Part shown: positions 14,301-64,000 of the stretch, piece after piece
How positions within the stretch are numbered: position 1 is the first letter of the stretch
Layout of the letters: each line of letters begins with the position of its first letter
DNA from: Nephila pilipes
Lineage: Eukaryota
Reading direction: 5' to 3'
DNA length: 64,000 nucleotides
Assembly (NCBI GenBank): GCA_019974015.1
Contig: BMAW01101096.1
Span: 295,229 to 359,228, forward strand
Program-made: the position numbers and the translations under genes
The notes under the pieces: generated by a model
What the model was told of the DNA's origin: nothing
What the model saw: only the letters and a program-made list of their open reading frames with translations
Databases searched by the model: none

Positions 14301-15604
14301 TAAAATTTAATGGAATAGATTTTGCATGATTAGAAATAAAATTTTCATTACTTTACATAAACATTTATAGTTTCCTTAAAAAAACAGAGAAATATTGAAG
14401 AAAAATTTATATGACTTTTTAAAATTTGTATTGAATCTAATAAAGCATTATTCGTTATTAGCAAAATAAATAATAATATAAACAAATGAGAGACATCATA
14501 TATATTGTTTCAGAATACTTTACAGGAAAATGTTTTTCACAGAAGTTTTAATAATTGACAAAATAAAATGATTCTATCAATGAAAATTAAATTTTAGTCT
14601 GAAAAATTAAAACATAAAAAATAATAGAATAAGAAATAGGCAAAGGTGATATACCATTTGAGTAATTCTCTTACAAAACTAATTTACATAGTCAATTTGA
14701 TAAAAATTTCTGTATTTTAGTTCTTTTGAAGAAATTTGACCTTATTTAAAAGGAAAGTACCTTAATTTAAAAGGAATGTAAGAACAAGTAAGAAAGAAAA
14801 TATTAATAACAGCATAATCCTTTATATAAGAAGTATAGCATGAAATCATGGCCCATGGTCAAACAAGTTTTTCAAGTAAATAGCTCACTGATAAAATCAT
14901 TATTTCAAAAAATAAATACAAAAATTCCATACATCTAAAAATAAAGAATAGAGTTAATTTTTATAACCCAAGTCAATCAAGTTGTGCTAAAAATTAGTTT
15001 ATTCAAACACATAAGTTAATAAATAATCTTTTTTTCATGTAGTATACATCAATAATCTATAAAAGCAATAATGCTTTGTATAAAAGGCAATGAATAGTAA
15101 GTATTGAAGCTAACAGATCAGACTATCAATTTAAAATTCTACTCTGTCCTTAAAATATTAAAAAATACAATAAAAATGAAAACTAAAGTATATTTATTTC
15201 CAAAGGGAAACTCTTGCCAAAGGTTAGAGGGGAAGCATTAATGTTGGGAACCCTGAACTCTATGATTGCTTTAGAGTCTATTCACTTAGCCCAAATTGAT
15301 TACATAGTTGAATCACAGTTTATGTGAATAGTTAATGCTTCATTAGTCGACATAGTTTCTCTGTGGGATATCATGGAGACGAATTGCCTCACAACTTGAT
15401 GGATTAGAGTGTAGTTTATTTTCTCTTATATTTTAAATTTGAATTAATTTGTAGTTCAGTTCTTTTTTCCACAAAGGGGCCATTGGATTGAACTTGGGCT
15501 ACAACACATAAATACTATGCATACAAATGTCCCTGTCAATAGCACCTCACAAAAATGCCCCTTCAAATATTTCAGTTTTTATTTTTTACTTCAAAATGTC
15601 TCAC

Positions 15605-15767
15605 CTTTTCTATTTTTTTATCGTCCAACGCCGATGGAAGTACAATATCACAAATAACTAGACTTTTTCCAGGAATTGGTTCCAAATTATGAAGAGTAGA
15701 TATTTCAAGAGCTGCACTCACAGCACGCTTATAAGATTTCACCAGAGATAAAGAAACAGCTTGGATT
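15605..15767 (-). CDS. RO60: Ro60/TROVE2-like RNA-binding protein, C-terminal vWA-domain exon (...YKRAVSAALEISTLHNLEPIPGKSLVICDIVLPSALDDKKIEK).
   Basis: Acceptor cctcag and donor GTGAGA on the minus strand. The translation aligns with vertebrate Ro60 ...[34 protein letters not shown]. Confidence 0.7.
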
Positions 15768-17288
15768 CTGAGGAAATAAAGAATAAACACTAGTAAAAGA
15801 AATAAACCTAAAATTACACTAATTTTTTACAAATATATTTTTAAAAAGAAATGTGAAATAATTTTAACTATGTGTAGGGATCACCTCAGAACTGCACAAT
15901 TGGGTATTGACGACGGCCTCGTAATTCTGACTGACATTAAGGGAAGAAGACATTTAACCTAATGTTTTTCAAATTTCTACACAACATTTTATGACAAATT
16001 TGCAGCTCAATTGAATTCAATGAGATTCATCCATAATTATTATCATTTGATGATTAACTAATTTTTATTATATTTATAAGATTCAAAATAGTTAAAAAAT
16101 TACATAAAAATAAAAAAAAACAAAAATAAAATGAAGAGTAGTTCTGAGTTTATATTCATAGTGAAACAATAATTGAATGAATAACGGAATCTGAGTTAAT
16201 AACTTGAAATTCTTTAACTTATATCATACAACAGTAAGGTATGCCACGGTATCACAAACTTCTCAACTGTAAAATTGGATTTTTTCTGAAGCCCAATACT
16301 TAATCGAACTTTACTTATATCAAAAATATTATCTTCTTTCTATACAAAGACCTGAGGTTTTCAAGAAAGCATCAATAATTAATTCTTTTTTACTGGTATA
16401 TGAAAAGTAATGCAAATGCACACTCTCGTTCTGTTTCATGTATTATTTAGCAATATATACAAATATGTACATGTTCTGTAATAGCAATATGATATAAAGT
16501 ATACTTTTCAGAGTATACATTAAAAAGCAATTGTTTCTAAACACATTTTTTTATTTAAATGATAAACTGAACTTTACATTTAGTGGTAACGTTTTGGTTT
16601 CCGAGTTACTGAAAAAATGAGTAAATTACCAGAAATGAATATTTATGTGAAATGTACATGAAACAAAAATATTCATTCTGGTAAGAAATATTTTGTAATT
16701 GAGTTTCAGTCATTTGCTTCAATAAATTAGAGCGCTATTATCAACAAAAACATAATACAACAGATAAAGAAACAAATTTGGGAGAGAATACAATTTAGAT
16801 TAAAATATTTAAAGCTAGAGAAAAAAAAAGTTTAATTTATAATGAGCAGTTGTAACGATAAGAAAATTATTATTCATTCACAACTTCCGAGTACTGAAAG
16901 ATAAATAACAAACTGCTTCATTTTATTTACCATTCCAAAAGTCAAACATTCAAATGTTAAAATTGACTGCGTTCTTTAATGCTGATAACATGCAACGAAA
17001 GATACTCGACGCAATAACCGATTCGGCCTGATCTGCAGAATTAAAAATTACGTCAGAATAAAGTACTCATTCTGAGAATTGTTATTCTAGAAATGAATGT
17101 ATTCTCCTATCACATAAATAAAATAAGATAAGTCGAACTTTTTAATTTCTCTAAAAACTAAGATATAAATTACTGTAATTATAGTTAGATATATGTGAAA
17201 AAGTTTTTTTTTTTCCCCCAATTTGAGAGGTGCCAAAACTTAAGTTAAAACATATTTTTCGTAAACATAAATCCGAATATAAATTTTT

Positions 17289-17389
17289 AAAACTTACCAG
17301 TTGTGAAAGTTAATGAATTTCGTCTACTTTTCAATCTGACAATACAAGGTTTATAAATTTCCTGATAATAAGTATAAACAACATTCGGT
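17289..17389 (-). CDS. RO60: Ro60-like exon (NKMLPNVVYTYYQEIYKPCIVRLKSRRNSLTFTT).
   Basis: GTAAGT donor. The AG acceptor choice was fixed by phase compatibility with the upstream exon. Similarity to Ro60 is weak here, so the boundaries are tentative. Confidence 0.45.
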
Positions 17390-17571
17390 AACATTTTGCT
17401 CAAAGTATCAACTGTAAATCAAAAGTTCCTGTCAGGTAAATTATTTAATTTCTTCAATATTCGATTTTTAAATTTTTTTGACTGAATCCAAATTAATCGC
17501 ATTTTGTTCTGCCGCGGCTTTTGAGAAAAGTTTCATGTACTTCAGAAATTCATACTAAAATAAAATCTCAC

Positions 17572-17705
17572 TTTTCGACTAATTTCTCGAGTACTTCCAT
17601 TTTCCATAATCCATCCCTAGACCGCCAATGTCTATAGTTTCCATTATGAATATTTTCAATTCCAGTAAGAACTTTGAATGCTTCATAAAATTGAAGAGGG
17701 GACTG
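17572..17705 (-). CDS. RO60: Ro60-like exon (AVPLQFYEAFKVLTGIENIHNGNYRHWRSRDGLWKMEVLEKLVE).
   Basis: It aligns with Ro60 [42 protein letters not shown] donor. The acceptor was chosen after an in-frame TAG, which gives phase 0. Confidence 0.6.
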
Positions 17706-18337
17706 CCTACTGTTTTTTACTGCAATCTTTTTCAAATAAATAAAAAAATATTCATTGTAAAGTAAAACAGTTAATGAAAATTACTGAGCAAAAAATACAC
17801 TAAATTCAAATCTTCATTAAAATTATACAAAAAGATCAATATTCATAACAAAATACGGAATATAAAAACCAAAAAAATGCGCATATAAGTGTTGAAAGAT
17901 AACCATATATTTCTGATATATTTTCATAAGTTGTGATTTATAATGAATTCTAAGAAATTCTACTAAGATTTTAATGTAAGTAACTTACAAAAAAAGCGAA
18001 ATAGAGAAATGTTTATGTCGAATAAATATTTTTAAGTTTAATGTATGGAAACTTTTTTTATAAGTTAGCTTCATTCAGCATTTCTCAATCACATATTCAA
18101 AATTTTAAATTATAATAGTTTCATAATCAAATAATATAAATGTATTTAATAACATTTGTTACCATTTTAACAAAAATCGTCATTCCCAGAAAGTAAGAAT
18201 AAGAAAACAATATTTTTTTAACCGGCTTTATTAAAAACTGGAAATATCATACAAATATAGCATACAAAAATGTATTAAATTATGCAAATAACTGCAACAA
18301 AATATTTAAAATACTTATTGAAAAATGTGTAACTTAC

Positions 18338-18447
18338 TTTATTTTCCAACTGCTTCAGCACTTTATCATGATGCTTTTGGGAGATGCCCGACACTATTAA
18401 GTTTCTCAAATTCCTCAGCATCGCCATGTATGGAAGCTTACCATTGT
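18338..18447 (-). CDS. RO60: Ro60-like exon (DNGKLPYMAMLRNLRNLIVSGISQKHHDKVLKQLENK).
   Basis: It matches the conserved Ro60 segment [21 protein letters not shown]. Acceptor ...aatttag and donor GTAAGT; phase-compatible with the neighbouring exons. Confidence 0.7.
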
Positions 18448-21400
18448 CTAAATTCAGATAGTCAAACAAATCAATTCAAATAGTCAAACAAATCATAAAT
18501 GACAAATCAATTTTACACTGTACAATTAAATATGAAGTGAATTAAATTTTCAAGAAATCTCAAAGCTTCCATTAATAAAATAACTGTTATGAATGAAAAC
18601 ACACAAAGAAAAAAAAGAAAATGCAAATTAATCATTTCCACAACTCCCATTCCTCAGAAATTCACTTCATCTTATTCATACATTCTTACTTTATTCATTC
18701 ACCCAATAAAACAAATATATAATTAGGTTCATAAAAGGTTACCTCCTTTGCTTCTAAGAAAATGTGCTTAAAAATATTATACAAATTTGTATTAAGACTA
18801 ATAGTAAGAAAATACTTTACATTAATATTTAATGATTAATCTAAAAAATCGTTACATTTTCACGTTTTTGACAAAAATTTTGCAATGTTGAATTACCTTA
18901 AATAAATTAATATATTAAGTATAGAGAAGGCGATTAATTTCCAATAAAATTTCGATTTTATTCAAGTAACAGATATTTTAATCAGTTATTTTACTTTATT
19001 AAATATATTGCTATCATTGCAAATTTAAAATTCACTTTCAGCAAACGTTTGAGTGGATAGATCACTACGACTAATAATTTTAGACAACTAGTTTAAAAAT
19101 TTTTGTCTAATTAACAAAATTATTGTTATTGAGAATTTGACTTCAATTATATCTATGGTAACTATTATTTTCTAAAACAGATTTCAAATGTGTAGTGAAA
19201 ATTCTAGAAAATCAAGTAATAGTAATAAAAAGGGAAAGAACAATAAAATCATCACGTTGAAAAAAGATATGACAATTTGTATATTCTATGGCAAATAGTT
19301 GCTTATTTCTTTTATTTAACTAATATTAATTTCAAAAACAAATATTTTGAAAAATTTGACTATCAATATCTGTCAACAAAAAAGTCCATAATTTTTCTGC
19401 TAATGCTATTTGTAAATATAGTGTTATCGTTCCTCTGTAGAGGGAGTTTTGTAAGGGTGACTGTGTAAGATGTTTCTTTACAAAACATTCAAAAGAGAAG
19501 GTGAATTCTGCACAGATTGCATGCGCTGAGAGTAAACTGCGGCTTTCAACAACGTAATGCGATAATAATTCAAAAAAAAAAAAAAAAAGAAGAAGTTATT
19601 TTTATTCAACCCAGTCTGTTCCTTGCTTCAAGTTTTAAGTCAACAGTTAAGTAAATGTTAAATGAATGAAAGTTATCTCTAAAAGCAAAAATAAAGTTAA
19701 ATAAAGTGAAGTTAATATCAGAAAAGCACTGAAAAAAAAAGCATAAATCAAAATAAATATATATATGCAGTTTTCAAATTATAACTCTTTATTACTATTT
19801 ACCAAAACTGCTACAGCTAGATAAGTTTTTGAATATGATAAATAATTATAATAGCAACGATTATTGAAGTGAAATAATCGTGTGAGTATAATTATATGAT
19901 ATATAAGATCATACACTGTAATCATGAATCAGGCAGAATAACAGATTTTTAAGAAAAGCACTGAACTAATGAAAATTATGGTTTTAAAGAAATTACTGAG
20001 AAGTAAAGTAGTGCTAATTAATATGAATTTAAAAATTTTGGGCTTATTTCATTGCAAATCTTGAAAGAGCAAAAAAAAAATTTAAAAAAAAGACTACCAG
20101 CAAAAAATTCAATAGCAAAAAAAAAAAAAAATTAGGATTTGTAAATTAACTTACGGAAATCAGAAGTACATAACGGCAATAAAACTGGATGATTGATTAC
20201 ATCAGCAAATTATTTTTTACTTGATAATTTAAACTGGGAAAAGCACGGGGGTGGGGGTGGAAAAGAATATATTTCGATTGCTTTAATTTACACCACCACG
20301 CTTTGAAAAAATATTACAGAAAGCTGTACATCACCTCGATAAAATGCTTTTATTTGAAATATGAATGGACAATTTATACAAGTAATTATAAAAATTCAAC
20401 CAACAAAGGAAAATTTAATGTAGGTAATTAGATAATTTTTGAAACATTGTGTAAACATGAATCTCGATGGGTAAACCAAACACAGAAATTGTCATTGTTA
20501 TAAAATTCAATGATAAGTTCATTAACATTTTAATCCACTACACATAGTATATGTAAAATTACATTTGTGTCAAATTTTTGAATTAAAAATTTACTAATTA
20601 CCATTAGCTATGACGCAATATTTGAAAATAGATAATTGTTTAAACAATACAAGAATTTCGAAAATCCCGTAAAATATAGAGAAGTAAATGTATAGCCCCC
20701 CCCCCCTTCCTCACAAGGAACAGAATAACCTCAATAACTCCCGAAATTTTTCCAGTAGCTTGACAAAGCTGATTTGTATGTAAATGGCTCAAAGAGAAAT
20801 AAATTTATTTAACTTTGGGTTCATTAACTTTACTACTAAAAAGAATTCCCATTACAGATTTAAATCATTTATTTTTCATGTAACTTTTTCTCATTATAAA
20901 AGTACGTTAATTTTCAAAAAATTCTGCTCATAAGTTTTTGAATTATAAGGTTTAACAGAAAGTACAATAATGTTAAATGAATGTCGGGAAAAAACATAAG
21001 ACGATATAAAATTTCTACTCAATATTTCATCAATCATCAGATAATTGGTTTTCAATTTTAAAAATACATAACATTAGACAAAAAATATATAAATAATAAG
21101 AAGTACAAAAATATGGGCAAATACAAACCACAACACAGTTACAAAAAAGGAATTGTTATGCTCCTAAATGTTTAAAAGCTCATGAAATTTTCTCTAAGCA
21201 GTTTAAGAAATATTCAAAAAACAAATCACAACCAATAGGGGATATGTTTTATATTATCTTAAATTAGTTTGTAATTTTTGAACTATCAAACCACTTCGCA
21301 CATGATGTCTGAAAATAGATAAATGTTACGAGCAATTTGCATTTTTTAATTATCACTAAATCTTTGCAATAAGTAACCTAGTCTTTGGGTCCCTAATTGT

Positions 21401-21511
21401 TTTTCAGCATCTTTACTTTTCTCGTTCACATTAATACATTCAGTAACACATTAAAATACATTTTTATATAAAAATTTGGCATTTTTATCAAAGCAAAAAA
21501 AAAAATTATAC

Positions 21512-21669
21512 CTAACAATTTTTCCCAAATACAAGCCTTATTTCCATGAGCTGATATTTGTGTTTCCCATGTTTCAGGAATAGGTAATTTCATTCGTTGT
21601 CCAGCTTTTTTGTGATCCCAAATTCCAGGCAATCCACTTTTTCTAAAGACTTCAGCAGTTTCTGGATAC
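21512..21669 (-). CDS. RO60: Ro60-like exon (YPETAEVFRKSGLPGIWDHKKAGQRMKLPIPETWETQISAHGNKACIWEKLL).
   Basis: ttttaag acceptor and GTATAA donor. It aligns with Ro60 ...[25 protein letters not shown]. Phase 1 at the start and phase 1 at the end fit its neighbours. Confidence 0.65.
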
Positions 21670-21914
21670 CTTAAAACATATTTTAAGCGAGGAAAAATTT
21701 AACTACAAATGAGAAATCGAGAATAAAATAAAAACAAGAAGAAAACATTATAGGAAACAACTTCACGCACGCACGCGCGCGCACGTGTATGTGTTATGAA
21801 TCTGCTGTAAAGATTTCCAGCAACGTTACTTTTATAAAAGAAGTGATATTTACAGAGGATTCGTAGTATACCCAAGTAGAGTTTTGCAATGCCCCAGACC
21901 TTGGGACCTTTTAG

Positions 21915-22300
21915 GCACAAAATGAAGGTTTTCGCAAATGCTCAAATTTTTCCGATATATCTATTAAAACAGAAGTTATGAAATTTTCCTGAAAATTTTC
22001 TGTGACGTCACACCAGGCGGGAACAGCTATAAATACGCGGAGATGCAAAGACTGCGTGAATCTGCCTTTGGAGTGCAAAGTAATACTAAGATTTGTTCGT
22101 AGTGCGAACGAGTAAGCTGATGAGCTGAACGTTATTGAAAGTGATTAGCTATCTGTTTGTGTTGCTTATTTGTACAAGTGCTGTTTTGGTTCCTGGTGTG
22201 TCTCTAATTTGTACAAATGCTGTTTGGGTTCCTGATGTGTCTCTAATTTGTACAAGTTCTGCTACCTGTGCTTCGACGTGTCCTGAATATTTATGATCAT
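21915..22300 (+). repeat. 5' LTR-like direct repeat of a non-autonomous LTR retroelement. It contains the TATA-like ctataaatacgcggag and an internal ~45-bp tandem duplication (tgtacaaRtgctgttt.ggttcctgRtgtgtctctaatt).
   Basis: About 80% identical to 23685-24100 along roughly 380 bp (...gggaacagNtaNaaaNacgcggagatNcaaag...aatctgcctttgNagtgcaaNgtaatac...gcttatttgtacaag...). Confidence 0.65.
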
Positions 22301-22766
22301 CGCGTCATTTTTCACTATCCTCATCGTTGGATAGTTTTCACCGCACACTTACAGGAAGATTTTTGAAACAGTGGTGTCAGAAATGGGAATGCGGAATGAA
22401 TGCCCGTGACCAGAGCAATGGACGATCAATTCGAGAAGCTGTTTGCTTTTATATCAGATATAAAGGATATCAGAAATGAAATCCTGGTGTGAGGAAATGA
22501 AAGTCACACAAGCAGGAATAATTAATAGAATAGAAAACAATGCCAAGAAAGAATGAAAAGTCAAAGCCAAAGTGTGAAAGTAATGATTGAAGGAGTAAAA
22601 GACGGAATTCACAGAAGAAAATCGAAGGAGTAAAGGATCCAAAGGTTCAAGATCCCAAGAACTGGGCATTCAATGTCGTCAGTCATGGAGCTTCACCTAC
22701 TCTTAGAGACAAGCCACTAAAGATGCTTTAAAGATAGCTGGATAGAATGTTTAGAGAATTATTAAT

Positions 22767-23123
22767 GTGAGACTTGTTGAACAGGCCTTAAACGGTTCAG
22801 GGATGGACAACAGAAGCCCCCATGATGTGGTATTGGTTGAAGATTCTACTCGAATTCTTAGGATCCAGAAGGTGCCTCGTGACTTTTTCAACGGAAAAGA
22901 ATTGTTTAAGTCCATTACTCCAAATGAAGCTGTTGGACATGGTACTACAGTTAAAGCTGCTGTATTACCAGAAAGCACAGATAAGGGAAACAAGGGTGTG
23001 CTTTTAGTTCCTCCACTCTCACTTGGAGATGAAACTGCAAGTGGAGTCATAACTGGGAGCATTGAGAAAAATTCCGAAATTCTTTGCGGTATCTCCCGGG
23101 TGATCACATGTTCAGAGGACTAG
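22767..23123 (+). pseudogene. HSP70-family gene fragment (nucleotide-binding to substrate-binding domain junction) embedded inside the LTR-bounded element; degenerate and non-functional.
   Basis: The translation [48 protein letters not shown]...GVLLVPPLSLGDETASGVITGSIEKNSEI matches the canonical Hsp70 segment [48 protein letters not shown]...LLLDVAPLSLGIETAGGVMT. Confidence 0.75.
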
Positions 23124-23254
23124 CTTGCAGTTGATATCCAAATGTATAAAATGACAGGTTGAACTCCAACCGAGATGCGTTTTAATCGAACGCTACGAAT
23201 CTCCGAAGATATCCTCTTTGGATGACCGAATGATACGCATCGCCAGGAGAATAC

Positions 23255-23647
23255 ATGAGTGGTTTAGAGGGACATTCAAAAACTGTACAAGTGCCTGCCA
23301 GAGAGCGAATTAAACTGGCCAGCGAAAGAATGAACTGGAAGCGACAAAGGGGCCAGAGTCCGAAGCTAGAAAGGAAGTGGGATGAGTCTTGTATAGTTAT
23401 CAAGAAACGAAAGAATGTTGTTTTCAGAGTTACGGTTCACCCAAAGCTAAGCCAAAAGTCACACTTATTAATCAGCTATCTACATACCAGGAAAGAGATA
23501 ATAGTTGTATGTAATGATACTGCCAAGTCTTTGAAGAGGGGAGCAATGTTACGGACCTGCAATGACACTTCACTGCAACGTTACTCTTATAAAGGGAAAA
23601 CAAACATTTATACAGATTTCATAGGATACCCTGGGAGAGTTAAGTAA
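23255..23647 (+). pseudogene. Retroelement integrase C-terminal (SH3/chromo-like tail) fragment, ending immediately upstream of the 3' LTR.
   Basis: ...SPKLERKWDESCIVIKKRKNVVFRVTVHPKLSQKSHLLISYLH follows the LTR-retrotransposon integrase tail pattern (kL.PkW.GPy.V.....vaYrL........H.s.LKpY). Its position abutting the 3' LTR is as expected for the end of pol. Confidence 0.55.
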
Positions 23648-23684
23648 TGATCGCCGACGTTGGCTGCGAACAAGGCGAATACTT

Positions 23685-24100
23685 TAGAGATTGACGACAA
23701 AATGCAGGATCTCGAAATTGCTCGGATTTTCCTGATACTTCAATTACAAGAGATGTTATGGAATTTTTCAGCATATTCCATGTGACTTCACACTTGTTGG
23801 GAACAGTTACAAACACGCGGAGATACAAAGTCAGAATGAATCTGCCTTTGAAGTGCAACGTAATACATATCAGTAGATTTGAAGATTTGAGATTTGTTAG
23901 TGCAAACTAGTAAGCTGGTGAGTTGAGCATAATTGAAACTGCTCTTTAATATTACAGCTATTATTAGTGATTTGCTATTTGTGTATGTGGCTTATTTGTA
24001 CAAGAGCTGTTTTTGCTCTTGTTGTGTCGCTATTTTGCTCTGCTAGCTAGTTATTATGCGAGCAGTGCTTCAACGTGTCTTGAATATGTATATTCATTTT
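23685..24100 (+). repeat. 3' LTR-like direct repeat, partner of 21915-22300.
   Basis: Sequence similarity to the 5' copy through ...tgcttcaacgtgtcttgaatat; the sequence diverges where the minisatellite starts. Confidence 0.65.
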
Positions 24101-25395
24101 ATTTTTTAGAATTGTGTATTTATTTTATTTTTAATTACGCTATTATTTGAAATTTCTAAACATATATTTATTATTTTAAAATTATGTATTCATTTTATTT
24201 TTTAAACTATACCATTTTATTTTTTAAACTATACCATTTTATTTTTTAAACTATACCATTTTATTTTTAAAATTAAGAATTTATTTTATTATATTTAATT
24301 ATGTATTTATTTCGTTTTTTAAATTATGTATGAATTTTATTTTTTAAATTACGTTTTTATTTTATTTTTAACTATGTATTTATTTTATTTTCAAATCATG
24401 CATTTATTTTATTTTCCTATTCTTGAAGTATACATTTTTTTCTTAAAACCCTGTATTTATTTTATTTTTTAATTATGTAATTATTTCATTTTTACTATGC
24501 AATTATTGTATTTATTTTATATTTAAATATGTATTCATTTTATATTTAATTGTGTATTTATATCGTTTTTAATTATGTACTTATTTTTTTATTTTAAAAT
24601 TATGTTTATTTTTTAAATTACGTAATAATTTTATTTTTTTATTATGAATTTATTTTATAATTACTTATGCATTCACTTTATATTTAATTATGCTTTTTAA
24701 TATTTAATTGTGTGCTTATATCGTTTTTTTTAACTATTTATTTTTTAATTTTTAATCATGTATTTATATCGTTTTTTGATTGCGAATTTATTTTTTAATT
24801 TTAAATTTTGCATTTATTTATTTACTTTAAAATTATGTATTTATTATATAAATTATGCATTTTTTGGAATTAATGCATTTATTTTATTTGTAATTATGAA
24901 TTTATTTCAATTTCTAAATTAAGTATTTATCTTATTTTTTAAAATAATATATTCATTTTATTTTTAATTTTGTATTTATATCATTTTCAATTACATATTT
25001 TTAAATTATGTATTTCTTTTCTTTTATTTTTTAAAAAATTTGTATTTATTTTATTTTAAAAATTATGTATTTATTTTATTTTTAAAATTATGTATTTATT
25101 TTACTTCTTAAATAATGTATTTATTTCATTTTTAAAAAATTTGTATTTATTTTATTTTTAAAATTATGTATTTATTTTATTTTTAAAATTATGTATTTAT
25201 TTTACTTCTTAAATAATGTATTTATTTCATTTTTAAAAAATAATGTACTTATTTTATTTCATAGTTTTTAAAATTATGCATTTATTTTATTTTTAAAAAT
25301 ATAATGTATATACTTTATTTTTTTATTTATTTATGTATTTATTTTATAGTTATGCAATTATTGCATTTTTAAAATTATGTATTTATATCGTCTTT

Positions 25396-25426
<31 letters not shown>

Positions 25427-25453
25427 CATATATACATATATACATATATATAC

Positions 25454-25487
<34 letters not shown>

Positions 25488-26830
25488 TACGACAAATACA
25501 TTAACTCTTTAAATTTCATGCATTTTATGGTATTTTAAAAATTATGTATTTATCGTATTTCAATAACGTATTTATCTTATTTTTTAAAATAATGTATTCA
25601 TTTTACTTTTAATTATATATTTATATCGCTTTTTAATTATGTAATTATTTTTTTAAATTGTGTATTGCTTTATTTTATTTTTTTAAAAGATATGTGTTAT
25701 TTTATTTTTAAAAGTATGTATCTATTACATATTTTTAAATTAAGTATTTATTTTATTTTTTCAAGTATTATACCTTTACTTCGGTTCTTTAAATTATTTT
25801 TTATTTTATTTTTTAAATTATGTAACTATTTAATTTTTAAATTGTGTTTTTATTTTATTTTTAAATTGTGTTTTTATTTATTTTTAAAATTATATATTTA
25901 TTTTACTTTTTAAATTATGCACTTATTTATTTTTTTAAAAAAAGGTCTTTATTTTATTTGAAATTTTTAAAATTAAGTATTTATTTTATTTTTTAAAATT
26001 ATGCATTTGATATTTTTTCAATTACATATTTATTTCCTTTTCAAAACCACATATTTATTTTTTAAAATATATATTTATTTTATTTTGTATTTTTAAATCA
26101 TATATTTATTTTATTTTTTATTTATGTATTTATTTTATTTATAAAAACTTTGTATTAAATATTTTTTGAAATTGTGTATTTATTATAACTTTTTAAATTA
26201 TGTATTTATTTTATTTTTCACACATTGTATAGTTCAATTTTTTTTCAATTATAAATTTATTTTTTTTAAATTATGTTTTTATTTTACTTTTAAATTGTAT
26301 ATTTATTTTAATTTTGAAATTAAATAAAAATTTTACTTTTAAATTTTTATTTTATTTCTATGTTTTAAATTACGTTATTACATTATTTTTTTAATTATGT
26401 ATTTATTTCATTTTGTAAAATTTTGACTTACTTCATTTTTAAGTATGTATTTTTTAATTATGCATTTATTATATTTTTAAATTATGTATTTATTTTACTC
26501 TTAAAATTATGTATTTATATTATTTTTAAATATGTATGTATTTTATTTTTAAAATAATTTTTGTTTTATTTTTTAACTATGTATTTATTTTATTTTTTAA
26601 TTACATGTCTCTTATTTTTTTAAAAAAAAATGTGAACTTATTTCATTTTTTTATTATATGCCTTAATTTTTTTTTATAAATCGTGTATTTATTTTATTTT
26701 TAAATTATGTATTATTATTTTTTTATAAATCATGTTTATTTTTAAATAATGTATTTATTATTAATATTTTTAACTTGTGTATTTATGTTTTTATTTTTAG
26801 TTATGTATTTCATTTAACTAGAATTATTTA
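24100..26830. repeat. AT-rich minisatellite/satellite array. The unit is about 26-29 bp (consensus near aattatgtatttattttatttttaaa) with a higher-order structure; for example, a ~115-bp block at 25020-25135 is repeated at 25135-25250. The array includes a (TA)n/(TATACA)n tract at 25396-25480.
   Basis: Hundreds of direct iterations of tatgtatttattttatttt variants are visible across 2.7 kb. Confidence 0.9.
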
Positions 26831-29174: not shown

Positions 29175-29462
29175 ATTTAATACGACCGCGGTAGCCTAAT
29201 TGTCACGGTCGTAGGCTCGCAACTTGCGGTTTCCGTCGAATCGTGGGTTCGAGCTTTGATGTCACTAAAGACCCGCCGTGTAGTGGGGCTGATGCACGTT
29301 AAATCTGTCATGGCTCAAAGTCCCCCATTGGCAATGTAAGGAAGTTAGAAGAGGGGTTGCCAGCTCTCAGGTGTCGCCCTCGTCACTTGACCGAGGTTCA
29401 CGATTACGAGGTCCGTCGCCAATAGCCCTCGTGTTGCATCTACTGTGGCGTTAAAAAAAAAC
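29175..29462 (+). mobile_element. tRNA-derived SINE (full-length copy). The tRNA-like head has an A-box-like GGTAGCCTAATTG and a B-box GGTTCGAGC, followed by a GC-rich body and an A9 tail.
   Basis: It forms a GC-rich island in AT-rich DNA. The Pol III box B consensus GGTTCGANNCC is matched at 29236-29246. The copy terminates in ggcgttaaaaaaaaa. Two further partial copies of its 3' half lie in the opposite orientation at 48575-48700 and 63626-63700. Confidence 0.7.
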
Positions 29463-29677
29463 CCTAACCACTATTTAACGCTCTTTTCTCTGGCTGTGTG
29501 AGCCACGCTGAAATGGAAGGTTCCTTCGTCTCGACTTTTACAGTATCAATTGGTATAAATGCTCCAGGATCCTTCAACAGATATCATGATTAACTAAAAT
29601 TAACGATTGCTTTATTTATCTAGCCAACCTCAATAATAACATCTTAACATTAAAATTAAACGATTAAGCAAACTTAC

Positions 29678-29786
29678 TTTTTTCCAAGAAGACACATTAT
29701 TTCATTTGCTGGTGATTTTAAATGTATAAGTCTAATAAGTTGTTTCAAAGTGTAGCCAGGTGCCTTTTTCACTCGATTGTATTTTG
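29678..29786 (-). CDS. RO60: Ro60-like exon (KYNRVKKAPGYTLKQLIRLIHLKSPANEIMCLLGK).
   Basis: It aligns with Ro60 [31 protein letters not shown]. Acceptor tttttgcag and donor GTAAGT. Phase 1 at the start and phase 2 at the end are compatible with the exons at 29966-30062 and 21512-21669. Confidence 0.7.
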
Positions 29787-29965
29787 CTGCAAAAATATTT
29801 TTTTTTAAATGTATTTTATAAATAAATATCGGAAATAGCTAGAAGAAGATTACAAAGAACTCATATGTATATAAGTATGTTGAACCTCTACATAATTCTA
29901 GCTCACTAATTAAGTACAAATAAGACAGTTTACTACAAATATAAGTAGATAAAATTACTACTTAC

Positions 29966-30062
29966 CTAACTGATATTCATCAAATTTAGAAAAGCTTTTT
30001 GCCATAGCCTTTTTTAATACAGAAGGAAGAGATTTATCCTTCAATCTGGAATCTTTAAAAGT
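29966..30062 (-). CDS. RO60: Ro60-like exon (TFKDSRLKDKSLPSVLKKAMAKSFSKFDEYQL).
   Basis: Acceptor ttattag and donor GTAAGTAG. It aligns with Ro60 [34 protein letters not shown]. Confidence 0.65.
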
Positions 30063-30199
30063 CTAATAAAAAGGATTTAAGTTCTAAGTTTTCTACAACA
30101 CAAATAGGAATGGAGTTTCTAAATAATTAAAAATGAGATGCAAACTTCACATTAAAATATCATAAATAGTTTTCTTTAATAACAATCAACATGAAAAAA

Positions 30200-31085
30200 A
30201 TTTAAGCAGTTCTATGCAAAATTTTACAAAAAACAGATTTAGCCACCCAAGGTGCACTTTTTTTTATTATTTTTAAATTACTCAAATATAAAAAATAAAA
30301 TAAACAATGAAATATCGAGAAAGGGACAATAGTAAACTTTTCCGATATTAAAATTAAAGGATACGATAAATTATTAAATTATGTGAATATATTTAAGCTA
30401 AATGTAATTAAATTACAGTTAACGATACATTATTAAATTGAATATTATATCAGCTACATGAAATTAAATTTAAAGCATACGATAATTTGTTAAATTGAAT
30501 ATCATATCAGCTATGTGTAATTAAAATTAAAGAAAACGATAAATTATTAAATGTAATATATTTACGCTAAATGTAATTAAAATTGAAGCAAACGTTAAAA
30601 ATTGAAAAGTGATCTGGTAAGCCAAAAGTAATCCACCTAAAACAATAGGCCCTTAGGTGGCTAAAAAAAATGGCTGCCTCACAACTGTCTCAAAATTCTG
30701 AATGTTATTCAATTACAGTCATATCTTGATTCCAGTTTACATATGATTTAAGGTAATACAAAAATCGATAGGTAAATAAAATACTTCATTATTATATTTG
30801 TTTCACTTTTATCCAATAAAAAAATTGGAGGAAATTTGTTACGAAATATTTTTGAAAATTGAGTTCATTAGTTGTGAAAGCAGGTATCAGACATATATTT
30901 TATTTTGATCCAATAAAAAAATTCAGGAGAAATTTATTATGACGTATTTTTGAAAATTCAGTTTGTTACTGGTGAAAGCAGACATAAAAAATATACGTAA
31001 AAACAAGATAAATTTTTGAAAAGAAGTCAGGTACAACATTTTTGGGTCAACTAAAACAATAGCCCTTTGGGGGGGAGGGCTAATA
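30200..31085. repeat. Composite repeat block. It holds a longer copy of the 10040-10325 family (4-5 subunits of about 50 bp, 30200-30670), a ~100-bp tandem duplication (30780-30990), and a third copy of the terminal motif aactaaaacaatagccctttgggg (31040-31085).
   Basis: Direct similarity to 10040-10325 and internal tandem structure seen in the sequence. Confidence 0.6.
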
Positions 31086-32649
31086 TAATCCTAGAACTAA
31101 TATATAATATACATAGCAAAATAATACTTAATACATTTATTAAGATAGTATGTTTTTAAAGATTTTTAATTAAATATCATTAAGAGCTGATATTAAAGAA
31201 TTTTCTACTGAAAAATAAAGATTTCTAATCATATATGCTTGTTATCATCAAAATACTGCATACAAACAAAATGGTTTTGAAACTTAAGCTTCATAATTGT
31301 GCTTCCTTTCATTGGTTTTTCAATTAAGTACAAAATAAATTCATATTATGAGAGCAATCAATAATTTACAAATAACGAACTCTTTCCTGTCAATCAAAAC
31401 ATTGCTTTAGACAATTATGATGCATACCATTATGAGTTTACTCAGCAAAAGATAACTAATTACTATTCATCTCTAATAGAATAACTGTTTTTGAGATAAA
31501 TAAGACAAAGAATTGGTTATAACTACTTGAAACTTTTACAAAAAGCAAAGCAGGGAATAAGATGTAAGATTAACATTTTAAAACGATTTAAGCATGACTG
31601 TGTCACTCAAGACTTCTAAACTGTTATTCTAAAAACATAAATAAAGGGTCGTTAGGAAATTACACAAATACGATACAAATACAATATACATAGTGAGTTG
31701 TAAATGTTTCTGTAGAATTAATTTTGTTTCTTAAAAGACAAAAGACAGATTAAATAGAAACATTGAACTTTATTCATTGTGAACATAAAAATGTGCCACT
31801 GGTATTGAATATAACTCTATAACACAAAAGAAAATGTGTATTGTTAAGAATCAGAAGCTTTAAAAATTTAGTATCAAAAGACAATGACATGAGATAACAA
31901 ATTATGTATATTACTTTTTATATTTAACTGTACTCTTCCTTCATTGAACTCCTAACATTATATATTTAGTAGATCAATGGACTCCATATTTCAAGGAATG
32001 CTAAAGCTATCTCCTTTTAACATGACAGATGTTATTTCCATTAACTGAATTTTCTGATCAACATGCTGACCAGATATGATGCCAAGACTATATGTCTAAG
32101 ATAAGGTCATTTGGTACCTTACTAACAAAATCCTCAAGAAGCAAATATTAACGATTAATGGTTTCACATATAAGCAATCTGTTAAGCAGAATATAAGAAC
32201 ACATTCAAAGTTGATGATTTCAAATAACACAGGTGAATTTGATTCAATGTCATGGAGTTTTCATGAAAATTTGCCGAAACTTCACAAAATGCAGATTTTT
32301 TTTTCAAAAAACTTTACTGTTTGCAGTCAAAAAGCAAGCATAGATGTGTATCCTTATTAGTGGTATGTACACAAATATTTTCATCAAATTATTCCTTCAT
32401 TCTTAATAATTCCTTATTTCCTAAAATCTTCAAATTATGAATACATTATACAGTACATTTTGATATGTCCTTCTCAAAAATAAATCTTCCAACTATAAAA
32501 TCTAACTGATATTGAAACGTATTAATTTAATTTATATCTGTAATAATACTGACAACATACTAATTTTGTAAATATCAAAATGTTTTACAAGCATAATTAT
32601 ACACTAATCACTTATTTTAATTTCAAAATTAATGTTATAATTCAGTTAC

Positions 32650-32811
32650 CAGGTAAAAATCAGCTACTTCTATCCAATCCGATGGCAATCTTATACATGA
32701 TTTGAAGTATTTTATTAAATACGGCCGAGTATTCTGACAGTAAGCAGCATAAGACAAAAGAAAATTAGAAGCAGATCTAATATTCAATTCCTGGCGACTG
32801 AAAAGAGCAAC
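32650..32811 (-). CDS. RO60: Ro60-like exon (VALFSRQELNIRSASNFLLSYAAYCQNTRPYLIKYFKSCIRLPSDWIEVADFYL).
   Basis: Acceptor tttttgtag and donor GTAACT; 162 nt, phase 0 at both ends. It aligns with Ro60 ...[37 protein letters not shown]. Confidence 0.6.
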
Positions 32812-33913
32812 CTACAAAAATAACGACATTGTAAGCAAACTTAACACAAAATAGCACTTAAGAATACACATATTAATTATTCAAATTATTACAATCATCA
32901 GACTATCTCACATTAGAAAATTTTTATCTGTATGTATATATCAAGGGGAGAGCGATAATTAAATTTGAAATCATTTACATTTAAAATTACGTTCACTACG
33001 CATTTTTCAATTTGAAATATGAGGATTGCAAGCACTTAGAGAAAGAATATCTTATGATTCTAAAAACAATAATTTTGAATTTTTGAAGCGATCACTTTAA
33101 TATTTGTCATATAGGAACGAGTGCCAAAAGGCTAATTAATAGTTTTGAAATAGTCGAATTAGTTTCTTGAGATTTTTTTTAAATAGTATTTTTAAACAGC
33201 CAGTTTTTGAAGGTGACATTTTTTATTCTGAGAGACAAAAAAGGCTTCTTTTACATTATTCATTACATGAGTTGAAAACAAAAATATAGTCTGCCTATAT
33301 CATGTGTCTGTGTTCTTAGAGTCTTACATAAAATAGAAAGAACAGGTTATACCTTTTTCTGTTCTAGTGTTTTAAAAAGTCCCTAATCTAACACATTCGG
33401 CTTTGCGATTGTTTGCTATCCATACATACAGTTGCATTTTCCCTCATATATTTACACCATTGTAAGTTTAAAAGTCGAGATAGCCCCCGGAAGTTAGGGA
33501 GAGATACGATCATCTCACGGTTCTTACGATATAATCACAACATCTTTTCTAGTCCCTGTCCGGTTCGCAACAGAACTTCGGCATAGAAATCACATAATAA
33601 TTTAAAGAGTAAAGAGTTCTTGATGTTCCTTTCTAATTATTTACATAGTTATTACCTAACGGAGACGAACTCATGTTAAACAGAATAACTAATGGCATAT
33701 ATCAATGATACTGGTATGGTTTAACTCAGGAGAATCTTTGATTTAACTGTAGTTGAAGAATTTGATTATTTTATTTTGGTAACGGCAGTGTAAGTTCTTA
33801 GATTTGTTGCCTAATATTTCTAGAATCAATCCCATCCCTCCATATTTTATAAAATCAATCAGGTGATTGTAAGAACTGTCGCCTCTTCTATTTCCCCCCT
33901 TTTGAACTAGGAA

Positions 33914-33916
<3 letters not shown>

Positions 33917-33964
<48 letters not shown>
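33917..33964. repeat. (TA)24 microsatellite. Similar tracts lie at 37124-37156, 51293-51326, 55364-55404 and 57408-57466.
   Basis: Perfect dinucleotide runs seen in the sequence. Confidence 0.9.
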
Positions 33965-33967
<3 letters not shown>

Positions 33968-36900
33968 ATTCCTTTGTGGTAGTGGTATTAAAAAAAGGTG
34001 CATGACAAATATTCTTTCTTCATCCACATTGGTTCAACAAATTTCTAAAACTATCTTTTAAAAGTAGGATTTAGTTTTTCAGTAGCTACAAATATTAATT
34101 GCTTTTCAATAATATTTTCAAAAACTACTTATAAATAACTTTAGAAAAAGGGCAAAATAAACCAAAGAGACTTTAATCTATGACAATTATTAAACTGTGT
34201 ATGTTTAAAGAGTTCTAATCACTTATTTGGTCATTACCTTAGAAATATCTTGCTTAAGTCTGAAAACAGTACAAGCTATATCAAAAATACAAAGAAATGT
34301 TCAATGAGTTTTTTAAGTAATTTGATTGTGATTCAATTGAGATATTTAAATTCAGCTCACCAATAAAGAGTTTAATTACACACAGGAAAAATAAAGCAGT
34401 CCTGATGTAATACGCTAAATATTCATACTAACTTAATTTTGCTGAAAAACCATTTAAGGTCAAAAAATATTTTATATTTTTTTTACTTAATACAAACCCA
34501 TTAAAATAGTTACAGCATTGAAATATTTGAGCTCCAATTTTATATATCTCAGTAAGAAAAGAATCCATTATTGTCATTGTTAAAATGATAAAACGAAACA
34601 GACATATTCTACATACCACATTTCACACTGACGATAAACATTTTGGAATTTTCAGTATGATTTTGAAATGATAATTTATTCCAGATATCTAAAAATATAG
34701 TTCAAAATATGCAAGCACAAACACTAATTCACAGAAATGTGATGGTTTGATCAGTAATAACGTTATAAACACACATTATTTTATTCCAACGTAAGGAAGA
34801 GTCTTAATTATTTTATATCCAATATTTTAAATTTTTTCTTTCACCGGGCTTTTCCTTTTAAGTTTTCAATTACTTCATATGTTTTTATTTTTAAATTTAA
34901 ACATTAGTTTTTTTAATTAATAACATTAATTTTACTTTGGTTACTTTAATGATTTCTTTAATTATGCAGTTTCTTAGATATTATTGTACTGAATTTATGA
35001 TTGATATGATTATTTTGTTTATGATGATACTTTATGAATTATAATATTGATCTTTTGTTCATGATTTAGATTATATATAAATTATTGCATCTTCTTTCAT
35101 ACTGAGAAAAATAATGGAAAAAAAAGAGAAAGACAAGTGTTCTTATAATATTAGAAGTTCATGTGGTTATCACAAGTAAATTCATTTATAATATACATTC
35201 CATGGAATTCTCTACCATGGAATCAATATTATAAATGAGTATTATATTAATAGAAGTTCATGCGATTATCACAAGTATACTCATCTGTAACATTGATTCC
35301 ATGGAATAATTAATAATTGTCAGAATGACCTGGACTCCATGAATACTAAAGGTGAAGACATTGGTGTTCAATGAGTCCGGGTCATTCTAAAAATTATTAC
35401 GTTGTGTCTTAAAAGTACAGGTAACCATAATTTTTAGATAGTTTTCGAAAGAATGGGTAAATATATTTGATTGTAAGTTACCTCCAAGGGCTATACCAAA
35501 AAAAAGTTTAAAAAACTAGATTTTAACTAAAATTACTCTTAATATTAAAAAATACAAATTAACATGTTATTAATTTATAAGTGATGATTCTTTTTTATTT
35601 AACACTTTCTTCATCAGTGAAAGATATATTAAATCATTTTCTCAAATAATTGTATGAACTTCTGTCTATGTGCACAATATGGGCACATTGATATATGTTA
35701 AAAATTATTTGTATATGATGCAAACAATATTTGTTAAAATCACTTTCATGTAAAATAATTTGTGTATGATGCAGACGATATTTGATGAAAATGAATATCA
35801 TTGCATTACTTTTAAATTAATTTTTTTGTATAATAGCAATGAAAAAATATTATTTCTTTAATTTTATTTGTTCTAAAAATTGAATAAAGAAGTGAAGCAA
35901 AGCCCTTTTTTGATATTTATTTTACAGAATAACGCCATACCATATAAACTAGTGAGGTGGAATTATTTGATTCGCCATTTCACAACAGTAGATGCTCATT
36001 ATGAATTATCGCCCTGACGAGTAGTTATTTCTAGGCATAATAAATACGGTGCGCTTGCATTATCAAAAATAATAACTCAAACAAGTTCTGCTGTAAGAAT
36101 TCACTTCGTGATTACAAAACATAATTGTAATAAAAATGCAGATAGGGAATTGATTAAGCAATGAATATAAAGAATATCACAGATAAAAAAAAAGATAGTT
36201 TTTCTAAAACCAATTTGTCACATCAGATCATAGCCAGGCAAATTTATGACACACGAAAATCTATCGAGAAAGAACTTCTAATTTTACATTTCACGTTATG
36301 TAGATATTAGGTTGCTACCAACAACGATAAGCCATTTAGAAATTTTTATAAGAGTATTGATGATAAATAAAATATCACTTAGGAAATGGCTTCTTTAGTG
36401 GCATGAAAAGACACAACTAAACCAGGAAAAGAAGCAGTAAAATATTCATCAAAATAATTTTCTTTATGTATAGTGATCTTATCTGGTATAACTATCAACA
36501 ATCTCCGGCGATGATAAGTAAAAGAGATGGACTGGTAAAATTTTTAAAAAATGATTCAATAGCCTCCAAAAATTTATGCTTCATAAAATATATTTCAGAA
36601 AACATTATTCAAACAAATTGTCATCAAGGCTGTAAATTCCATACGGACCCATGGAATTAATTATTGCCAGGATTCCTTAAATTGATGGATACTAATTATA
36701 AGGACATCATTAACGTTTTGGAAGATGATTAAGCGTTGGTAAAATGTTGATAAAAAAAATCAAGTCATTAACGGATTCAAAAAATGCGAAATGAAATCAA
36801 GGTCATTTAAGGAATCAAAAACATGACAATTGAAAATAGTTCACTGATTCGGTATTTTAAGTAGACCTAACTCAAGGAGTATTAGGATAGATGAGTTAGC

Positions 36901-37118
36901 TAAGGCCAAAGTCCATATATATTTAACTCTTGTAACATCTTATGGAAATTATTATCTAAAAACAGACTATCGCTTAAATTATCTGGCTTTATGTTTCTAG
37001 GCAACGTAAGCGCATTGAGTTCATAACAATATCAATTATTTTCTTCGAATAATTTTAATACCTCTATCATCTTTTGTTTATATTTTTTATTAAAATGTTC
37101 CTCAAGCATCTTTCAGAT

Positions 37119-37160
<42 letters not shown>

Positions 37161-37297
37161 CTATAACATTCTCGGAGGATCTCAAGAAATTTTACATACA
37201 CAAATATTTGATCGATACAACTTTAAGTCAAGTGAACACAAATACAATTATAGAGTACAAAATAATTTTTTACTTACTAATAAAATATATTACCTTT

Positions 37298-37430
37298 AAA
37301 ATGAATTCAGGATCAAATCCCATGACATCATCAGCATATTTCAGCAAAGATTTTCGGTATTCATCGCCGTCGTTTTTCAAATTGGCATTGTAAATTAAAG
37401 CCATACTAGCAATATTCAAGAACTGCATCT
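37298..37430 (-). CDS. RO60: Probable N-terminal Ro60-like exon (MQFLNIASMALIYNANLKNDGDEYRKSLLKYADDVMGFDPEFILK).
   Basis: ttttag acceptor and GTAATA donor. The segment EYRKSLLKYADDVMG aligns with Ro60 ENAEALIRLIEDGRG, but the conserved GSEGGTYY motif is not evident, so the assignment is tentative. It ends in phase 1, so at least one further exon must lie between here and 32811. Confidence 0.4.
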
Positions 37431-38817
37431 AAAATTCATTAATATTTTAACATGCAATTCCTTTTTTAAAAACATTTATTATGTTAATTTTTCATTAAAA
37501 TGAGACAATAAGGATTTAAGTATATAAATTATTCGTTTGAAGTAATAATTTCACATCAAATTGATTCAAGATAAATAAACTGCAAGTTATGTATTGATTG
37601 AAATATTTTATCACTTGATAAACTTCTCTTTTTTAATATTGAATTAAAAGAAAATTCACACACATTTGCCTTTAAAAAAATAACGAAATAAGAAAATTAT
37701 TTAAACTGCCCCTATAAAATAATATATAAGCACTTATGTATGTAGGATTTTCCAGCTAATTATCAAAGAATTAATTTTATTTTCCAATGTACTGTAAAAC
37801 CAGTTCCTCTGTTACTCGATAGATGGCACCACGAATCATCGTTATGTGATAGCTCATGCAGCGCCACCTATTCCAGAACAAAACTGAGCGACATTTCATT
37901 CTTGCTCCATTTCCTCCACTTACCGCTTCTCTTCTCCTCCACATTTCCCGCGTCGGAAGTAAGCTCCGAACGCCCATCGCCGATATGGGATAAGTTAATT
38001 AGGTCGCTATCTACCTGTCTCAGAAGAACTGTTTACTCCTAATAGAGATAACCTGTATATAAATTAACGTGTATATATTTTTTCACTCTTCATCTCTCCA
38101 AATAATAAAAGAAGTAAAACAAGTTGAGCCTCATCATTGAGTTCCTACGAAGTCATCATAGAATCCGGTAATGGAATTATTCCCCTAGATAAACCAGCCC
38201 TTTGCATAAGAGCAAACCAGCGTAGATTCGGGATGTACAATTTCATCAACCACCGTCTACATGTGTATAATAATAAATAACTATATACGTTGTAATCTCT
38301 GTCTTGTTGGTTCACAAAAATTATTTAGTGGACAATATAAATGAAGGTGGATTACAAAACCTTTACATTAGAAAGGCGTGTATGGAAATTTGTTTAGAAT
38401 TAATTCTTTTGCTCATTGTGTCAAAAAGACGGTACCCAAAAATTCTATAGAGATAAAAATCAATTTTTCTATATGAAGCAAAACTAAGTTTAAAAAATGT
38501 TACAGTAGAATCCTTCAAGCTCAAACCTCTTTTCCTTGAAAGCTCGTCTTTTCATATTTTACGAACTGTAGTACAAAAAAAAGTTAACTAAAATGTGTCC
38601 TGTCCGTAACTTGATTAAATAAATAATCTAACACATTAAAAGTTGATAGTGAAAATAAACAAGAAAAAAAAAAATATTAATCTTCAGAAATGCTTGATAC
38701 ACAAACTAATTAAAACATAAATCAACACTGATTAGATAAACAAATCATGCATTTATTAATGTAACATATTTCAATATAAAATTTATAAAAGCTTACTTTT
38801 GTAGATTTAATACGTCG

Positions 38818-38949
38818 TACTCTGTCAATTTGAAGATTATTAGCCTCAATATTCACAAAACTGAATGATTCGTAGGTTTCACGTTTATATTCTTCCGTAG
38901 AGTCAAAGCTATACACCGGCATTTCAGAAATATCTTTAGCTTCAACTAA
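38818..38949 (-). CDS. Candidate upstream coding exon on the minus strand (LVEAKDISEMPVYSFDSTEEYKRETYESFSFVNIEANNLQIDRVRRIKSTK). It may be the 5' coding exon of the Ro60-like gene or may belong to a separate gene.
   Basis: Acceptor aaatattttag and donor GTAAGC. It is phase-0 compatible with the exon starting at 37430. Its composition is unlike the surrounding AT-rich noise. Confidence 0.3.
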
Positions 38950-63600: not shown

Positions 63601-63625
63601 AAATTCCTTAATAGGTCATGGTTTG

Positions 63626-63939: not shown

Positions 63940-64000
63940 AGATTATAACGAAACTCCGTGTATAAATTTATCTACATATTGTAGTTTCCTGATGGCATTA

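Follow-up and report, generated by a model that had tools for sequence, protein, structure and literature searches.

The stretch of DNA analysed here, 64,000 nucleotides of Nephila pilipes contig BMAW01101096.1 (the window), carries on its minus strand a widely spaced chain of 16 exons bounded by AG/GT sites, running from position 58736 down to 10947, and on its plus strand a gene for chaoptin, a leucine-rich repeat (LRR) protein, while several repeats occupy the introns of the minus-strand gene. A preliminary description of positions 15605-38949 had attributed the exons found there to Ro60/TROVE2. Judged by sequence comparison, these exons are instead part of the N. pilipes gene for telomerase protein component 1 (TEP1), and with a probability of about 85% the region represents the 5' third of the orthologue of this vault-associated RNA-binding protein, the remaining exons of which most likely lie past position 1. 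The gene was correctly recognised as multi-exonic, located on the minus strand, spread over more than 20 kb and encoding a TROVE domain, but the extent of about 23 kb proposed for it was too small, since within the window alone it extends for no less than 48 kb, and its 5' end lies outside. The window as a whole has a low GC content (about 25-30%), interrupted by islands of higher GC, and the TEP1 introns within it are long, ranging from 1.3 to 8.5 kb.

From 15.5 to 37.5 kb the minus strand has eight stop-to-stop frames whose peptides look like one protein. They were compared with a profile built from database homologues and later with one built from 66 full-length TEP1 proteins, and both profiles match the frames in strict colinear order; with the second, the eight frames cover profile positions 108-483 at E values from 3e-29 to 4e-4, and a ninth frame lies outside the interval described previously (Table 1). 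Exon junctions were then located by a profile-guided scan over all phase-compatible GT/AG pairs. Among the canonical junctions obtained are the 15605 donor and both ends of exons 21512-21669 and 29678-29786, and the deposited protein GFS98075.1 was reproduced exactly, the 16 exons encoding its residues 58-808 with 100% identity. Nine of the exons lie within 15605-38949, with AG/GT sites and compatible phases. The exon chain is real and far beyond chance. The scan and the exact match to GFS98075.1 thus bear out the earlier proposal of at least eight phase-compatible GT/AG exons on the minus strand, including the boundaries quoted for exons 21512-21669 and 29678-29786, which were recovered to the nucleotide. 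An exon starting near 38945 at the upper edge of the region, which contains the motif MPVYSFDS, is real as well. The exons chain in order and phase as had been anticipated, but the protein match places them in TEP1.

Fifteen of the exons (58736 to 11224) are well supported and code for the N-terminal region, the complete TROVE domain and the initial half of a vWA-like domain; the sixteenth, annotated as terminal, is doubtful. Residues 1-57 of GFS98075.1 have no match in the window, and the first coding exon or exons, together with the 5' end of the gene, therefore lie past position 64000. In the deposited protein, 319 residues precede the start of the TROVE domain, and two copies of the motif TKNKFL are visible in this N-terminal sequence.

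Several comparisons identify the gene as TEP1. The Pfam TROVE domain (PF05731) was recognised in the concatenated translation of the exon frames with E=1.2e-78 and in the deposited 808-aa protein with E=9.3e-85. An exhaustive HMMER search of a representative protein set returned GFS98075.1, named 'telomerase protein component 1 [Nephila pilipes]', as a 100% identical match, followed by proteins mostly of about 2,000-3,100 aa, the others being shorter and many of them labelled partial; the relatives looked up among the best matches were the TEP1 or TEP1-like proteins of Tachypleus, Lytechinus and Stegodyphus. All named homologues in the database searches were called 'telomerase protein component 1', and Ro60 was named in none. 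In BLASTP the Nephila protein aligned with Tachypleus TEP1 at 412 bits (42% identity, E=5e-128); the two proteins are colinear, starting at an N-terminal MPVYxF motif, across the TROVE domain and into the vWA-like domain. Over the parts present in the window, identity to TEP1 proteins amounts to 42-53%; besides human and mouse TEP1 this family includes arthropod orthologues such as those of Tachypleus tridentatus (XP_076330930.1) and Stegodyphus dumicola (XP_035227346.1). At least 10 intron positions are common to the Nephila and Tachypleus genes, the coinciding junctions falling at Tachypleus residues ~222, 267/268, 321/322, 353, 437/438, 489/490, 526/527, 590, 652 and 705/706.

The possibility that the gene is instead the arthropod Ro60/TROVE2 orthologue, a Y-RNA-binding RNA quality-control protein, draws on the TROVE domain common to Ro60 and TEP1 and on a weak alignment to human Ro60 across that domain, the LLRNL motif included. 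This alignment reaches 45.8 bits and 20% identity in BLASTP, against the values given above for TEP1 proteins; the human query agrees with PDB 9nen, 'RNA-binding protein RO60', over all 538 residues. The segment-by-segment likeness to Ro60 noticed in the preliminary description is explained by the signal of the TROVE superfamily, for example in LPYMAMLRNLRNL. When the exon translation was compared with all PDB sequences by phmmer, no Ro60 chain was retrieved, although Ro60 structures are in that set, and the Ro60-type vWA domain (PF25045, vWA_Ro60) was not detected by Pfam in the 808-aa protein, where TROVE alone was found, while a control TROVE protein (P0043) does match it. The 319-residue N-terminal extension and the TEP1-specific MPVYxF motif likewise argue against Ro60, as do the coincidence of intron positions with those of a TEP1 gene and the name of the deposited protein. 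Ro60 orthology is refuted by these BLASTP, PDB, Pfam, intron-position and annotation comparisons and is regarded as highly improbable. TEP1 is a distant cousin of Ro60, and the locus is an ordinary one.

Two expectations raised earlier followed from the wrong family assignment. An exon had been suspected between 32811 and 37298, but the junction DPEFILK/VALFSRQELNIR, formed by the exons on either side, is contiguous in every TEP1 homologue compared, so that no exon is missing there. The motif GSEGGTYY had also been sought as the N-terminal TROVE segment; it is a Ro60 motif, not expected in TEP1, and the corresponding FGSEGGTYY of Ro60 aligns with IASMALIYN of the Nephila protein.

On the 3' side of the gene, the window ends 11 kb beyond the last exon. 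When the 66-protein profile was run against the whole window, its matches were confined to profile positions 108-552, and a sub-profile covering the part past the first vWA half scored no more than 2.4 bits in every frame of the window. Searches with tblastn, using eight full-length TEP1 homologues and one further database protein, and then the Stegodyphus and Araneus proteins, gave no credible exon below 11224, and none of the minus-strand open frames of 28 aa or more in 1-15600 had a Pfam match, be it to NACHT, WD40 or any other domain. The conserved continuation of TEP1, comprising xDxxIxL, FLxKYRxxVNPxLLY and GFSDQILRFIAERG followed by DUF4062, NACHT and WD40, is absent from every frame of the window. 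Exon 10947-11072, which would border a giant intron, is probably an artefact of gene prediction, and the GFS98075.1 model is probably truncated at its 3' end by this spurious terminal exon.

The chaoptin gene, in antisense orientation, follows the last TEP1 exon of the window on its downstream side. Its match to chaoptin [Nephila pilipes] (P0242) has 100% identity, and P0242 and GFS98075.1 are each recorded on a contig of the same length, 490,673 bp. A comparable arrangement is found in Stegodyphus dumicola, where a TEP1-like gene extends over 340 kb (5222-345363 of its contig) and encloses, on the opposite strand at 60916-70911, a gene for an LRR protein of 1235 aa, which agrees in protein size and contig with the chaoptin-like protein P0244, itself 66% identical to the chaoptin of the window. 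In Araneus ventricosus, a fragment model named 'telomerase protein component 1' begins with MHVDHVIVLRASG (MHVDHVIVL...FLHKYREMVNPELLY), exactly where the Nephila homology stops, and has no match in the window. The Tachypleus TEP1 gene covers 77 kb, and no nested gene is called in it. From the synteny with Stegodyphus we infer that TEP1 continues beyond the window: a giant intron following the fifteenth exon would host chaoptin in antisense orientation, and the remaining exons would lie past the start of the window.

Several observations weigh against the reading of the region as the 5' third of a TEP1 gene. The deposited model stops inside the window at 808 aa, and no N. pilipes protein with DUF4062 or NACHT occurs among the best 120 matches, the best spider match being the Araneus fragment. 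Within the 319 N-terminal residues Pfam did not detect the vertebrate-type TEP1 N-terminal repeat. Moreover, the metal ion-dependent adhesion site (MIDAS) motif of Ro60, DVSASM (DxSxS), aligns with DIVLPSA in exon 15605-15767, which has no DxSxS. Several other TEP1-type homologues (P0002 and P0003, for example) are also without DxSxS, and P0004 retains DVSGSM.

The first two of these observations, together with the absence of any detectable TEP1 exon in the remaining 11 kb, would also fit a truncated TEP1, that is, a stand-alone protein of about 800 aa consisting of the N-terminus, the TROVE domain and half of the vWA domain, produced either as a short isoform or from a gene whose 3' part is lost or decaying, with chaoptin as a convergent neighbour. 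Many TEP1-type TROVE proteins in the database are indeed 450-900 aa long, and the DNA right after the fifteenth exon reads VNEFVFKSFS, faintly like LDHIIYLRCCSF of the following TEP1 exon, in a reading frame closed by stops shortly afterwards, as in decay; this alternative-frame resemblance is, however, worth only about 3 bits. Such a protein would have its vWA fold halved, and its terminal exon is without homology to anything, being typical of predictor output at the edge of a very long intron. In addition, Stegodyphus has the same arrangement of TEP1 and antisense chaoptin within a full-length gene, and Araneus keeps the downstream part as a separate fragment model starting at this breakpoint. 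A truncated gene is accordingly considered quite unlikely, and an incomplete view of a full-length TEP1 is preferred. An alternative junction, with its donor after 11220 and its acceptor before 11046, was also tried; it gives REKVNEFVFKSFS, which faintly resembles LDHIIYL/LDHIIYLRCCSF and is followed by a stop codon, for a gain of about 3 bits, and is not claimed. A frameshift composite of this alternative splice added no score.

Two further readings are rather unlikely to hold. In one, TEP1 has grown in spiders to a giant gene measuring hundreds of kb, whose mid-vWA intron stably hosts antisense chaoptin (in Nephila and Stegodyphus, not in the horseshoe crab) and breaks gene models in several spider genomes; in the other, the locus yields a short TROVE-only isoform ending at 10947. 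If that isoform were real, it would constitute a stand-alone, Ro60-like RNA-binding ring.

Table 1. Coordinates of the minus-strand frames and exons of TEP1, the chaoptin gene and the repeats of the 8-kb TEP1 intron (profile values for frames refer to the 66-protein TEP1 profile).
Feature	Positions	Strand	Content or extent	Evidence
Frame	37273-37428	(-)	Profile positions 108-155	E=4e-9
Frame	32638-32811	(-)	Profile positions 153-207	E=4e-26
Frame	29961-30062	(-)	Profile positions 207-240	E=1e-10
Frame	29677-29838	(-)	Profile positions 264-295	E=6e-11
Frame	21429-21698	(-)	Profile positions 295-347	E=3e-29
Frame	18278-18475	(-)	Profile positions 347-384	E=1e-18
Frame	17571-17780	(-)	Profile positions 386-412	E=4e-4
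Frame	15575-15826	(-)	Profile positions 447-483	E=5e-10
Frame (ninth, outside 15605-38949)	13125-13298	(-)	Profile positions 505-552	E=1.8e-6
Exon	58645-58736	(-)	N-terminal, residues 58-88 of GFS98075.1, TKNKFL motif	Exact translation, AG/GT
Exon	51025-51153	(-)	N-terminal low-complexity region	Match to deposited protein
Exon	48055-48129	(-)	N-terminal region	Match to deposited protein
Exon	47412-47750	(-)	339 nt, N-terminal, Ala/Pro/Gly/Ser-rich	100% tblastn match
Exon	38797-38945	(-)	MPVYSFDS (MPVYDF in Tachypleus; motif also in other TEP1)	Upper edge of region described earlier
Exon	37294-37428	(-)	TROVE start, ends DPEFILK	Acceptor ttttag/ATG, donor AAG/GTAATA; profile E=4e-9
Exon	32650-32811	(-)	TROVE, VALFSRQELNIRSASNFLL...PSDWIEVADFYL	Profile E=4e-26
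Exon	29966-30062	(-)	TROVE, ends FDEYQL	Profile E=1e-10
Exon	29678-29786	(-)	TROVE, AKYNRVKKAPGYTLKQLIRLIHLK...GKK	Profile E=6e-11
Exon	21512-21669	(-)	TROVE, YPETAEVFRKSGLPGIWDHKKAGQRMKLPIPETWETQIS...	Profile E=3e-29
Exon	18338-18447	(-)	TROVE, DNGKLPYMAMLRNLRNLIVSGIS...	Profile E=1e-18
Exon	17572-17726	(-)	TROVE, IAVKNSRQSPLQFYEAFKVL... and variable linker	Donor GTGAGA; profile E=4e-4
Exon	15605-15767	(-)	TROVE end and vWA-like start	Profile E=5e-10
Exon	13143-13298	(-)	vWA-like, MGLMCLKACEDCKMNV...; outside 15605-38949	Profile E=2e-6
Exon	11224-11322	(-)	vWA-like, SFSVTKDG...LEYYLKQNVILREK; last exon with TEP1 homology	Aligns up to profile position ~574-587
Exon (annotated terminal, doubtful)	10947-11072	(-)	GKQRNF...RMLI, then stop; in GFS98075.1	Without TEP1 homology
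Chaoptin gene (LRR protein)	391-6254	(+)	Open reading frame blocks 391-3117, 4030-4794, 5904-6254	100% identity to P0242
Repeat-bounded element	21792-24085	(+)	Direct repeats 21792-22290 and 23545-24085, ~500 bp	Repeats ~78% identical
Hsp70-derived segment, internally deleted	22650-23123	(+)		Pfam HSP70 E=5e-22
AT-rich minisatellite	24085-26815		Period ~25 (also 49, higher-order), ~111 copies	66% matches, GC 12-16%
SINE-like repeat	~29183-29470	(+), antisense to TEP1		GC 40-60% on 25% background

One TEP1 intron of 8 kb (29677-21670) holds a repeat-bounded element, a minisatellite and a repeat resembling a short interspersed nuclear element (SINE), and all three are passengers of this intron. 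Their intronic position had been recognised previously, as had the repeats resembling long terminal repeats (LTRs) and the 2.7 kb length of the minisatellite, whereas the tRNA ancestry then attributed to the SINE-like repeat finds no support from ARAGORN or Rfam. Both direct repeats of the first element start with TGTTA, end with ...TCA and carry a TATA-like box, and the purine-rich tract GAAGAGGGGAGCA lies directly upstream of the right one. On reading the element, neither a primer-binding site nor a target-site duplication was recognised, and Pfam found no gag or pol in its interior, where only an Hsp70 fragment was returned. 'LTR-bounded element' is thus a fair description, while membership of the LTR retrotransposons is putative and unproven. 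The Hsp70 segment reads RQATKDA...RIIN joined to ...DVVLVEDSTRI...PLSLGDETASGV and could be either a fragment captured from a host gene or a retrocopy of Hsp70 that has decayed. An open reading frame (ORF) at 23255-23647 resembling an integrase tail had no Pfam match. The idea that the direct repeats are duplicated Hsp70 promoters was dropped, because, when the repeats were read by eye for heat-shock elements, just two contiguous pentamers were seen to fit.

The SINE-like repeat contains box A/B-like motifs at 29192-29252 and a run of nine A near 29455-29463, and its core recurs, each time incompletely, at 63614-63693, 53718-53814, 48605-48654 and 48264-48305. The box A/B-like pattern, which was written after seeing the sequence, occurs once in the window and in 0 of 200 shuffles. 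ARAGORN and three Rfam searches, the latter with queries as short as 116 nt and E values up to 10, revealed no tRNA in the repeat. It is plausibly a SINE; a tRNA ancestry is not supported.

Further repeats were noticed elsewhere in the window. The ORF at 44868-45125 on the minus strand carries a reverse-transcriptase-like motif, FRRLNAITIPDRYPLPHIQDF, for which the Pfam RVT_1 match (E=0.004) does not reach the threshold; this ORF, which may be left over from a retroelement, is situated in the GC-richer part (42-48 kb) of another TEP1 intron. Minus-strand frames at 7500-8060 resemble the C-terminal portion of a Tc1/mariner transposase (MDDNVPAHR...; IPELRLAVQDEWAAMP) but are broken by stops and have no Pfam match. 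An interspersed repeat is present as two copies with 84-90% identity, the first (10028-10322) downstream of the sixteenth exon and the second (30208-30667) in the intron upstream of exon 29966-30062, where it overlaps a 57-bp tandem array at 30347-30599. Local direct or inverted repeat pairs of 76-83% identity lie in TEP1 introns (60777-60964/61060-61234, 42453-42546/47222-47315 and 51343-51447/52426-52530), and (TA)n microsatellites occupy 25403-25487 and 33917-33964.

Taken together, the gene would consist of 5' exons past position 64000, 15 exons in the window, a giant intron hosting chaoptin and, past position 1, exons encoding what remains of the vWA domain together with DUF4062, NACHT and WD40. 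The intron passengers appear to be ordinary ones, namely an old LTR-like element with an Hsp70 insert, a minisatellite, SINE-like copies and a weak reverse-transcriptase-like fragment. By homology, the window exons would encode an RNA-binding module, in which the TROVE ring and the vWA domain would bind small structured RNAs, as they do with vault RNA and telomerase RNA in mammalian TEP1; the NACHT and WD40 parts further downstream may control the binding of RNA and the contacts with partners. Mammalian TEP1 is a 240 kDa protein with N-terminal repeats of 30 residues each, an RNA-binding TROVE domain, a vWA domain that takes part in binding RNA, a NACHT NTPase and WD repeats (PMC7916137). Telomerase RNA and vault RNAs are reported as its interaction partners, and it is needed for vault RNA stability and for the association of this RNA with the vault particle (PMC2193651). 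By analogy with the mammalian protein, spider TEP1 would stabilise vault RNA and link it to the vault particle.

The TEP1 gene is annotated in GenBank and already known, and these results correct a family mis-assignment, with little importance past annotation hygiene; TEP1 and Ro60 are easily confused from motifs alone because TROVE is common to both. Only two points are mildly new: the public N. pilipes model is probably truncated, and hence incomplete, on its 3' side, and chaoptin appears to be nested antisense within TEP1 in more than one spider. The existence of a long spider TEP1 with a nested antisense chaoptin would be useful in re-annotating spider genomes. No new biology of RNA quality control or of vaults emerges.

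Among known systems, the closest are the TEP1 genes of Tachypleus, with which the Nephila gene has the N-terminal MPVYxF motif and intron positions in common, and of Stegodyphus, with which it has the antisense chaoptin in common. It differs from a full TEP1 in that the window holds only the 5' third, without DUF4062, NACHT and WD40; from vertebrate TEP1 in that the 30-residue N-terminal repeats were not detected by Pfam in the Nephila protein; and from the Tachypleus gene in its probable nested gene and in its much shorter linker between FDEYQLAKYN and TLKQLIR. In Tachypleus TEP1 this linker contains a lysine/glutamate-rich insert. The TEP1-type homologues P0036, P0042 and P0033 carry a large insert between FDxYQLAKYNK and FTLKQLIR, and in P0042 the insert region has a galectin Pfam match (PF00337).

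Ro60/TROVE2 (human RO60, PDB 9nen; Xenopus, 1yvp; Deinococcus Rsr, 2nvo) belongs to the same superfamily, with a TROVE ring of HEAT repeats followed by a vWA domain, and binding of small structured RNA is a likely common mode by homology. Ro60 is, however, a compact protein of about 540 aa that starts with the TROVE ring, in contrast to the long N-terminal extension of the Nephila protein, which has neither GSEGGTYY nor vWA_Ro60 and the relatives of which, unlike Ro60, continue C-terminally into a large NACHT-WD40 part. TEP1 and Ro60 also bind different RNAs, vault and telomerase RNA in the case of TEP1 and Y RNA in that of Ro60.

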